From a virus (taxonomy: Duplodnaviria > Heunggongvirae > Uroviricota > Caudoviricetes), in the IMG/VR virus record IMGVR_UViG_2724679140_000014: 13,036 bases of DNA; one strand, written 5' to 3'. A program made the translations under genes and the position numbers. This document shows positions 9,763 to 10,790 of this stretch, piece by piece. Each line of letters begins with the position of its first letter. Position 1 is the stretch's first letter. The notes under the pieces were generated by a model, which was not told the DNA's origin, did no database searches, and was given only the letters and a program-made list of their open reading frames with translations.

Positions 9763-9960
9763 CGGGTCCTTCCCGGAACCTTAAGCGCCGGGGGTACGGA
9801 TACGTGCAATTCTTAACTGTTTATGAAAATTTTTCGGGAAAAGTCAGATCCGTTCTTCTTCTCTGTAACTCATTGTTTAATCGTAAAATCATCAAAAAAA
9901 GAAAGGATCTGGCAGTGGTCATTTTGGGACAAAAATGACGTTATCAGATCCTTTCTCAGT
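9763..9960 (+). other. Lambda-type cos region (cosQ/cosB-like, cosN position diverged), + orientation
   Basis: TTTATGAAAATTTTTCGGG..CCGTTCTTCTTCTCTGTAACTCATTGTTTAATCGTAAAAT..AAAGAAAGGATCTG..CAGATCCTTTCTCAGTTTTGTTC aligns with the lambda left end (..CTATTTATGAAAATTTTCCGG..CGTTTCCGTTCTTCTTCGTCATAACTTAATGTTTTTATTTAAAATACC..AAAGAAAGGAAACGACAG..CTGTCGTTTCCTTTCTCTGTTTTTGTCC) as I recall it. The expected cosN position reads GGGGGTACGGATACG rather than GGGCGGCGACCT. Confidence 0.6.
9894..9955 (-). terminator. Hairpin with U-tract on the minus strand, immediately 3' of the nu1-like gene
   Basis: Perfect 11-bp inverted repeat GAAAGGATCTG (9901-9911) / CAGATCCTTTC (9945-9955) with a 33-nt loop, followed on the minus strand by T7 (A-run 9894-9900 on +). 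The same dyad is the homologue of the lambda cos-region inverted repeat. Confidence 0.45.
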
Positions 9961-9965
9961 TTTGT

Positions 9966-10568
9966 TCAATAATTGCGCTGTTGTCGCTCACCTTTCTGTT
10001 GCCGTAATTTCTCCGGCACGTTTCCGGTTGTTTCCATCAGGTAGTCTTTCAGAATGCGGGGCAGATTATCGGCAGTTTTGGCGCACGCATTACAGGCCCG
10101 TGCTGTTTCCTTCCTCAGCCCATCGAGCATTGCCGGAGTCATCCCGGGGAACTGCCTTTGCATTGTGAGCGGTAAACTATCCATGATCGAAGAAATCTGA
10201 CTCGCCAGTCCACGAAGCGCATAGAGCACGAACTCAGTATCTGTAACCTCCCCCGTCTCTCTGGCGTTCTTCAGTTCCTGCCCGTCAGCCTGTGCTTTGG
10301 TGAGACGGTAGCGTTCGTACTCTGTTGTGCCTGGCTGTAAATCTGATTCACCAGCAGCACGTAAATCATCAAGCTCCCTGCGGAGTTTTTCGTTTTCGAT
10401 GTCCTTCTCCCTTTGTGCATACCATTCGATCACCTGTGCAGAGTCGAAAGTCACTTCCACGCCTTTTCCGCCACCAGATGCATGAGGAAGGCCCAGCGTC
10501 TGCCAGCGTTCAATTGTGCGCGGATCAACGCCGAAAATCTCCGCCAGTCTCTTTTTGTTAACATTCAT
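9966..10568 (-). CDS. nu1: Terminase small subunit, lambda Nu1 family (200 aa), with a divergent C-terminus
   Basis: [103 protein letters not shown].. is collinear with lambda Nu1 ([103 protein letters not shown]..); canonical cos lies directly upstream. The last 50 or so residues differ from lambda. Confidence 0.85.
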
Positions 10569-10790
10569 CTATCAAATCCTCATCAAAAACCACCTCCGAC
10601 ATGAAACGCCAGAAAAACGGGATTTTCCGGTGTTATGGTGTCGTATGTTTATGATAGTTAATTTAAATAAAAACATAATGTTACATGCAAGAAGTACCGA
10701 CATGCTTTTTCCCTGAAAAATTTTCATAAATAGTGAAAATCTGCGCGTCTGCCGCCCCGTGGTGTTAATGGTTCCGGAAAGGACCCGTGA
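10569..10790 (-). other. Lambda-type cos site (cosQ-cosN-cosB), minus orientation, canonical position upstream of nu1
   Basis: Minus strand reads GGGGCGGCAGACGCGCAGATTTTCACTATTTATGAAAATTTTTCAGGG..GGTACTTCTTGCATGTAACATTATGTTTTTATTTAAATTAAC.., versus lambda GGGCGGCGACCTCGCGGGTTTTCGCTATTTATGAAAATTTTCCGG..CGTTCTTCTTCGTCATAACTTAATGTTTTTATTTAAAATACC. The cosN-like segment is complement of 10746-10758. Confidence 0.7.

Follow-up and report, generated by a model that had tools for sequence, protein, structure and literature searches.

Nested pairs of inverted cos-like sites and two small-terminase genes in a PICI-type satellite of Escherichia coli

The stretch of DNA analyzed in the current study (13,036 nt; IMG/VR record IMGVR_UViG_2724679140_000014; hereafter the window) carries a small-terminase gene, nu1, which lies between two cos regions in inverted orientation. 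This region is likely to be the packaging module of a phage-inducible chromosomal island (PICI)-type satellite, built from units in which a cos site is followed by a gene for a small terminase subunit (terS, product TerS) and closed by a second, inverted cos site. From left to right, a rightward cos site (cos3) is followed by a DUF1441-type terS in the same orientation (terS_D), a second rightward site (cosP), nu1 and the cos site upstream of it (cosM), both of which point leftward, and a last leftward site (cos4). In all, the module has four cos sites, with three classes of cosB, and two TerS families. PICIs are vehicles for virulence and defence genes, and the hosts within their reach depend on the helper phages that are able to package them.

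The inner cos pair and the nu1 gene

The original prediction, made from the sequence of the window alone, had placed two lambda-type cos regions in inverted orientation around nu1. Comparison of the window with itself (blastn) recovered them as an inverted repeat of 108 nt with 74% identity (9763-9869 versus 10787-10680, E=2e-12), and a repeat search found arms at 9763-9842 and 10708-10787 (80 nt, 75% complementary). Both copies, cosP and cosM, could be aligned column for column with lambda, phage 21 and Gifsy-1 through cosQ, a 12-bp cosN, I2 and the R3-I1-R2-R1 array. The nu1 gene (9966-10568, minus strand) fills the space between them. Its stop codon lies within 10 nt of R1 of the inverted cosP, and no partner gpA gene overlaps nu1 or follows immediately downstream.

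The cosM site (10569-10790, minus strand) consists of R1 (10593-10607), R2 (10636-10647), R3 (10689-10705), I2 (10711-10732), the cosN GGGCGGCAGACG (10746-10757) and a cosQ core (10780-10787). Read on the minus strand (10790-10569), it could be aligned, from cosQ through R1 to the start of Nu1, to the phage 21 and lambda left ends, as predicted for a cosQ-cosN-cosB arrangement leading into nu1, and it also aligned with Lambda_4C10, the CFT073 prophage phi4 and PhiR5_1. The R sites of cosM are of the phage 21 class, CATGTCGG, as in phage 21, phi4 and PhiR5_1, and nu1 lies directly downstream. The cosN of cosM differs from that of lambda at four of the 12 positions. It was also found beside nu1 and a gpA-type large-terminase gene (terL) in two phage contigs, L042 and L059, in which the adjacent cosB is of the CAGATCC type and of the type of cos2 in the PICI EcCICFT073, respectively; phage contigs with terS and gpA pair GGGCGGCAGACG with a CAGATCC or a CCATGTCCGG cosB.

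The cosP site (9763-9960, plus strand) comprises a cosQ core (9763-9771), a cosN-equivalent GGTACGGATACG (9793-9804), an I2-like element TTTATGAAAATTTTTC (9818-9835), R3 CAGATCCGTTCTTCTT (9845-9860), an AT-rich I1-like block (9861-9899), R2 (9900-9911) and R1 (9945-9956). R2 and R1, AGAAAGGATCTG and CAGATCCTTTCT, form a perfect 12-nt inverted repeat as in a lambda-type cosB. The prediction for this copy, i.e. cosB repeats and a dyad, a diverged cosN and a position against the 3′ end of nu1, was borne out, with R1 to R3 present and GGTACGGATACG matching the cosN of cosM at seven of 12 positions. Its description as lambda-like held for the order of the elements, but not for cosB, which is specifically of the Gifsy-1 class. 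The R sites, CAGATCC(G/T)TTCT, are those of Gifsy-1 and SerU-LTIIb; relative to Gifsy-1, the only change is a single base in R1, with none in R3 or R2. The matching sequences in Gifsy-1 and SerU-LTIIb lie directly upstream of the nu1 genes of those phages, and cosP is without a cognate terS downstream. A relaxed match to the integration host factor (IHF) site, with one mismatch, was located in cosP at 9866-9878. Assignment of the cosP cosN to the mEp460 class, with which it has ACGGAT in common, was rejected because its register relative to cosQ is 3 nt off. A cosN form similar to that of cosP, GGGGGTCTGGGGACGCGC, is carried by the decayed SerU-LTIIb prophage.

The nu1 gene is intact and encodes a Nu1-family small terminase of 200 aa, which matched Pfam Phage_Nu1 (PF07471) over profile positions 1-162 of 164 (227 bits, E=1e-67). 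The closest phage TerS was that of PhiR5_1 (70.7% identity), and identity to phage 21 gp1 was 62.5%. The TerS of one IHE3034-type PICI was 76% identical, and copies with 88.5-99.5% identity were present in nine contigs of 10.5-13.7 kb. The N-terminal DNA-binding region of the protein is of the 21/phi4/PhiR5_1 class, while the C-terminal half, including a tail that is absent from phage Nu1 proteins, is common to the TerS of the PICI EcCIIHE3034. The ratio dN/dS of nu1 versus PICI relatives was 0.10-0.22. As judged by these comparisons, the window Nu1 is a member of a satellite lineage, within which nu1 is under purifying selection.

The DNA-binding classes of TerS proteins co-vary with the R sites: VD(P/I)RTI(E/D)RWQ is found with CATGTCGG, CDVRT(V/I)T(A/G)WQ with CAGATCC, and ASIRTIQNWQ with CGTTTCC. 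Since the window Nu1 falls into the CATGTCGG class, it is predicted to bind cosM and not cosP.

The host island and the outer cos pair

Several complete E. coli chromosomes hold a stretch identical to the window. In strain IGC_RcoliRes_1.1 it sits between the tRNA-Pro gene proL and yejO, within a 14.4-kb insert at the 3′ end of proL whose boundaries were set by the empty site of K-12, and the inner cos pair is set back from the right att boundary by about 3.4-4.4 kb. The products of the island include an integrase with the Pfam domains Arm-DNA-bind_3, Phage_int_M and Phage_integrase, an AlpA regulator (ORF 1771-1977; Phage_AlpA, 33.3 bits against a cut-off of 21) and a primase (ORF 4431-6563; DUF927, and PHROG 1139 'DNA primase' with E=5e-166), together with SSB, a ProQ/FinO protein and two PerC proteins (Pfam, PHROGs).

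A gene for packaging redirection, one of the genes by which PICIs are defined, was found twice in the island, i.e. the Nu1-type gene (9966-10568) and a DUF1441-type gene (8770-9279). The original prediction had found no large-terminase gene on either side of nu1, and none was detected in the whole island by tblastn with lambda gpA and mEp460 TerL (best E=0.13). The RefSeq annotation of the island contains no structural or lysis genes. Scans of ORFs with Pfam and PHROGs revealed no capsid-morphogenesis gene, and the island would therefore be classified as a 'Type B' PICI under the SatelliteFinder scheme; such a gene is frequent in Proteobacterial PICIs, but not universal (PMC6092414, PMC10085698). 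By its gene set, the island is thus a PICI-type satellite that is short only of the optional capsid-morphogenesis gene. Together with the att site at proL and the satellite lineage of Nu1, this agrees with the earlier proposal of a satellite that carries its own Nu1 between two differently specified cos sites.

The alternative offered in the original prediction was a junction of a satellite cos with a lambdoid prophage whose left end has decayed. The similarity of cosM and nu1 to a phage left end would be expected from such a junction, and the cosB classes are indeed phage classes. We nevertheless regard it as highly improbable, since the gene set is that of a PICI and both cos sites are internal to a single island, as delimited by the empty site of K-12. 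The island is free of remnants of terL or structural genes, and the C-terminus of Nu1 is specific to the satellite lineage. Moreover, the same architecture recurs at other att sites, i.e. at rcnR/thiM (island L005), phoQ (L013) and cspD/clpS (L010), and in an island with a different integrase (L023).

The satellite module extends beyond the inner pair. Four copies of the cosQ core CGGGTCCT are present in the window, where 0.32 would be expected, and they point to two further cos-like sites, at about 8547 on the plus strand and 11646 on the minus strand. The earlier layout was therefore right for the inner pair, but had overlooked an outer inverted pair and a second terS. The left site, cos3 (8521-8710, plus strand), resembles the cos region upstream of terS in mEp460, mEp460_4F5 and PhiR40_1. 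It begins with a terminator-like hairpin (8521-8546), followed by a cosQ core (8546-8554), a cosN-equivalent GGGCGACGGATG (8578-8589) and a conserved block that extends to TTTTTTGTTCA at about 8700, upstream of terS_D; these sub-site positions are assigned by analogy only. The right site, cos4 (11556-11650, minus strand), is of the mEp460 class and inverted relative to cos3, with a cosN-equivalent GGGCGATGGACG at 11606-11617 and a cosQ core at 11638-11646. In the blastn self-comparison the two sites appeared as an inverted repeat (8577-8632 and 11618-11563) with 80% identity (E=4e-8). An exact IHF consensus, TATCAATAAATTG, is located at 11544-11556, just inside cos4.

Directly downstream of cos3 lies terS_D (8770-9279, plus strand), a full-length gene for a small terminase of 169 aa that matched Pfam DUF1441 (123 bits) and PHROG 141 'terminase small subunit' (E=2.5e-55). 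Its product is 58-64% identical to the TerS proteins of mEp460, PhiR40_1 and Ayreon, in which terL directly follows. According to PHROGs and the phage comparison, TerS proteins of this type are the small terminases of mEp460, Gifsy-2-like phages and some Stx phages. The possibility that the DUF1441 protein is an Rpp protein was rejected, as PHROGs and tblastn against phages gave a phage-type TerS. A search of PDB sequences, RppC included, returned no match at E≤0.01 (best E=0.076, an unrelated protein). The window Nu1 is likewise only 14% identical to RppA.

Just left of cosP there is a second copy of the terS_D 3′ end (9580-9663, plus strand), and this remnant includes the right copy (9622-9650) of a 29-nt direct repeat with 93% identity, the left copy of which is at 9247-9275. 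The islands L017 and L018, which have no terS_D, retain only the remnant. In L017 (strain MB06102), a gene for an F4-family fimbrial subunit occupies the position of terS_D on the opposite strand (10963-11754), from which it appears that the slot between cos3 and the inner cassette holds variable cargo. On the other side of the inner pair, between cosM and cos4, lies a non-coding spacer without an annotated gene (10791-11555).

Several features lie outside the packaging module. The 16-bp direct repeat TTTTTAGCTACACGTT was rejected as the att site, because the K-12 empty site puts the true boundary at the 3′ end of proL. It occurs just within each end of the island (10511-10526 and 24715-24730 of L001, i.e. 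window positions -91 and 14114, both beyond the window itself); the repeat is separate from the att core, which derives from the tRNA, and could serve as an arm-type site of the integrase. The Rfam scan found the Hfq-binding small RNA isrK (3002-3078, 80 bits) and a C4 antisense RNA (3100-3187, 75 bits), and no other match; both are distant from the cos region. They adjoin an Icd-like ORF and an Ash-family pseudogene, i.e. a c4-icd regulatory module of the P1/P7 type within a PICI-like island. Two genes for PerC-family activators (8151-8438 and 12734-13036), whose products are about 42% identical to each other, flank the packaging module. PerC/Pch homologues control virulence loci of pathogenic E. 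coli. Directly 3′ of the primase gene there is a 21-nt tandem repeat of 2.4 copies (6674-6724), a candidate iteron array of a replication origin.

Function of the module and orientation of its segments

In the packaging scheme that we consider likely, the satellite would rely on the capsids and the large terminase of a helper phage, and each unit of a cos site and a terS would supply a specificity subunit together with its binding site. In the inner unit these would be cosM and Nu1, the DNA-binding class of which matches the cosM R sites. The satellite-specific C-terminal half of Nu1 would dock onto a gpA-type large terminase of the helper, and the Nu1-gpA complex would direct cutting at cosM, leading to the packaging of satellite concatemers into helper capsids. 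The cosP site may be a second cos that copies another helper class (Gifsy-1 type), and that is either served only by a helper TerS or acts as a sink for it. The outer unit, consisting of the mEp460-class cos3 and the DUF1441 TerS and closed by the inverted cos4, would address a second helper family. Two cos sites could coexist in this arrangement because an inverted cos is no termination signal, whereas between direct repeats the terS segment would be lost or duplicated. Since each arm contains cosN and the two are inverted repeats of each other, the enclosed segments would be flipped by recombination between the arms; inversion could thus be a side effect of the arrangement, and possibly a function.

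Several observations weigh against the module being active as described. The nu1 gene is antisense to all other island genes in the window, while terS_D is in the sense orientation. No sigma-70-like promoter was detected upstream of nu1 on the minus strand (10569-11374), in a scan that is uninformative since its overall hits were no more numerous than in shuffled sequence. The antisense position and this weak negative suggest that nu1 may be silent here, and the intact gene may not be an active packaging gene in this island. In four relatives with the orientation of the window (L004, L005, L022 and L025), an identical internal deletion has removed 506 bp of nu1 (equivalent to window 10046-10551), so that the gene can be dispensable. 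Furthermore, the TerS-bearing PICIs of IHE3034 and 18098 showed no transfer after induction of their own strains (PMC6092414). The remaining points concern the cosN of cosP. Its variant was matched in IMG/VR only by seven contigs of 4.3-13.7 kb, and the satellite variants, compared over the inner cos arms of L018, L019, L022 and L063-L065 and window positions 9790-9807, conform to GGGGGT-NNNNNN-ACGCGC with a hypervariable centre (ACGGAT, ACGGGT, ACGTGT, AGCCAT, CATAGC). With five of 12 positions mismatched to cosM, a variable centre and an occurrence only in satellite-sized contigs, this cosN may not be cleavable.

The islands that share the 506-bp deletion have different integrases and att sites, and both flanking cos sites are retained in them.

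It is possible, though not probable, that cosP derives from past recombination with the cos of a Gifsy-class helper and is now either a relic without function or a decoy that cannot be cleaved. It could have been kept as harmless, or a dead cosN could avoid destructive double cutting while the cosB soaks up helper TerS. The 7/12 match of GGTACGGATACG and the absence of its hypervariable class from phage-sized contigs fit this explanation, and by our own reasoning the cutting of both inverted sites would leave fragments with non-complementary ends. In EcCICFT073, deletion of cos2 increases transfer (PMC6092414, PMC6739421), which also speaks for this explanation; yet the same cos2 supports residual transfer once cos1 has been deleted. 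Also against a relic, R3, R2 and R1 of cosP are identical or nearly identical to those of Gifsy-1, and the stretch from cosN to R3 differs by 1-3 nt across islands whose surrounding sequences are 8-12% diverged. In L063-L065 and L018, moreover, the variant cosN lies on the arm directly upstream of a sense, intact nu1, which is hard to square with a variant that is simply dead.

The orientation of the cos-bounded segments was found to be polymorphic. Inversions were found with a synthetic 'flipped junction' query against E. coli genomes, and in the flipped genomes the left flank of cosP runs straight into the cosM cosB and a sense-oriented nu1. The inner invertible segment (9763-10787) comprises cosP, nu1 and cosM, with arms at 9763-9869 and 10680-10787, and the outer one (8632-11563) lies between cos3 and cos4. 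Island L023 has the same orientation state as the window. In L017 and L018 (strain A19) the inner segment is inverted between colinear flanks (91-92% identity over 987-1025 nt), and in L021 window positions 9763-11623 were mapped as a single inverted block. Inversion of the outer stretch in L020 and L024 was judged from a gene and cos order that matches L021, and both segments are inverted in L019; the non-coding spacer is carried along in the outer inversion. Each of the four possible combinations of inner and outer state is represented among the relatives. L020, L021 and L024 carry a 3-kb insert within the outer segment.

Crossover points varied from island to island and were located at cosQ, next to cosN, or at the border of I2 and cosB. 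Within each flipped island, little or no difference between the arms is seen across cosN (both GGGCGGCAGACG in L017, both of the GGTACGG class in L018 and L019). The scatter of the crossovers points to homologous rather than site-specific recombination, and no serine or tyrosine invertase other than the island integrase was found in the island by Pfam or in its RefSeq annotation. As far as can be read from the sequences, the pattern is consistent with cos arms that have repeatedly undergone homologous recombination and gene conversion, perhaps under stimulation by terminase cuts. Identical cohesive ends would permit religation in either orientation. Terminase 'cut-and-flip' as the only route of inversion was rejected, because the crossovers differ in place between islands.

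A similar inversion was found for EcCICFT073: at least 15 complete E. coli genomes carry its cos-bounded cassette in flipped orientation within an otherwise nearly identical island. In one example (L028, 3828-4639), an 813-bp segment is 99.4% identical to positions 2528-3340 of the CFT073 island (L013) but inverted; the RppA and hyp282 products share their protein accessions with CFT073, and RppA is encoded on the opposite strand.

These findings raise the question of whether the cos-bounded segments act as a switch, in which inversion, perhaps started by terminase, toggles the terS that is co-oriented with the rightward operon, and hence the helper family. The existence of all four orientation states and the near identity of the arms across cosN in flipped islands would agree with a switch, as would the flipped EcCICFT073 cassette in an island with the same RppA and hyp282 accessions. 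In addition, all five islands that carry terS_D have nu1 in antisense orientation, while it is in sense orientation in nine of the 11 that lack terS_D, in a sample that is small and not phylogenetically independent; the five terS_D islands may share one ancestor. We consider such a switch unlikely, as there is no invertase gene, identity between oppositely oriented islands is typically about 90%, so that flips look rare rather than frequent, and the scattered crossovers are those that ordinary homologous recombination would give. The more general idea, that inverted cos pairs are a design of enterobacterial cos-type PICIs in which helper terminase cuts at cosN start recombination or gene conversion, flip the cassettes, reshuffle cosQ, cosN and cosB, and toggle the co-oriented TerS (Nu1 or DUF1441) as a helper-driven specificity switch, is correspondingly speculative.

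Comparison with known systems

The likely packaging module resembles that of EcCICFT073, the Gram-negative PICI that has been studied best, which is similar in size, carries int, alpA and pri-rep, and has an inverted cos pair that brackets one small helix-turn-helix packaging gene. In that island (L013), cos1 is located at 2528 (plus strand), rppA at 2660-3094 (plus strand) and cos2 at 3340 (minus strand), with the cosB of cos2 abutting the 3′ end of rppA; this cosB is of a phage class that also occurs in phage contig L059. Both cos sites of EcCICFT073 are reported to be functional, and efficient transfer requires cos1, the site to which the Rpp-TerS complex is directed (PMC6092414, PMC6739421). 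The orientation of cos1 and cos2 and their inversion are not mentioned in these two studies. The bracketed gene of EcCICFT073 encodes Rpp (144 aa), which re-targets the helper TerS, whereas that of the window encodes a full-length Nu1-family TerS. Both cosN sites of EcCICFT073 have the canonical form GGGCGGCGACCT, while those of the window differ from one another, and EcCICFT073 has a single cos pair, major-capsid-like and decoration genes and no DUF1441 TerS, in contrast to the two nested pairs of the window.

EcCIIHE3034 and EcCI18098 are TerS-encoding PICIs of E. coli (PMC6092414). EcCIIHE3034 has the same arrangement as the window, i.e. cos and terS (both plus strand) followed by an inverted cos (minus strand), and the junction TCTCAGTTTTGTTCAATAA, where the terS stop codon meets the inverted cos, is conserved. 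The N-terminus of its TerS and the cosB upstream are satellite-specific (GGTGGTGGTGG), whereas both are of the phage 21 class in the window. It further differs in having major-capsid and decoration genes, no DUF1441 TerS and a sense-oriented terS. Besides its Nu1-class inverted pair, EcCIIHE3034 carries an mEp460-class cos upstream of the capsid-like genes (L010, 16528-16700), and mixed cos classes are therefore not unique to the island studied here.

The presence of two cos sites in EcCICFT073, documented and tested (PMC6092414, PMC6739421), and the existence of TerS-encoding E. coli PICIs were thus already known, and a literature search gave nothing relevant on inverted cos sites or inversion in PICIs, or on DUF1441. 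What is new in the current study is the nested double cos pair with two TerS families, the distinct helper cosB classes on the two arms, the cosN variants restricted to satellites, and a recurrent inversion that extends to EcCICFT073. Two small-terminase families and four cos sites with three cosB classes suggest the use of several helper packaging systems. The findings on the unit of cos, gene and inverted cos, on its nesting and on its repeated inversion apply also to EcCICFT073, which is tractable in experiments; they offer a concrete explanation for the retention by PICIs of a second cos that lowers transfer in the laboratory, and make cos-stimulated recombination in satellites directly testable.

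With lambda, phage 21 and Gifsy-1 the window shares the order and spacing of cosQ-cosN-I2-R3-I1-R2-R1 and the position of nu1 directly after cosB. Unlike these phages, it has no gpA after nu1, its four cos sites are arranged as inverted pairs, and its cosN is not that of lambda. Among the Staphylococcus aureus pathogenicity islands (SaPIs), those of the cos type are represented by SaPIbov5 and SaPIbov4, the latter with two putative cos sites (cited in PMC6092414). They are likewise satellites with a helper-type cos instead of, or besides, a terminase of their own, but belong to Gram-positive hosts and to an unrelated system of cos and HNH terminase.

The invertible segments of Mu (G) and P1 (C) and the shufflons provide a last comparison. 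These depend on invertases of the Gin, Hin or Rci type, for which the window has no counterpart; in the satellite the crossovers are scattered, and the repeats are packaging sites. As in those systems, segments bounded by inverted repeats are found in both orientations, and one is nested within the other.

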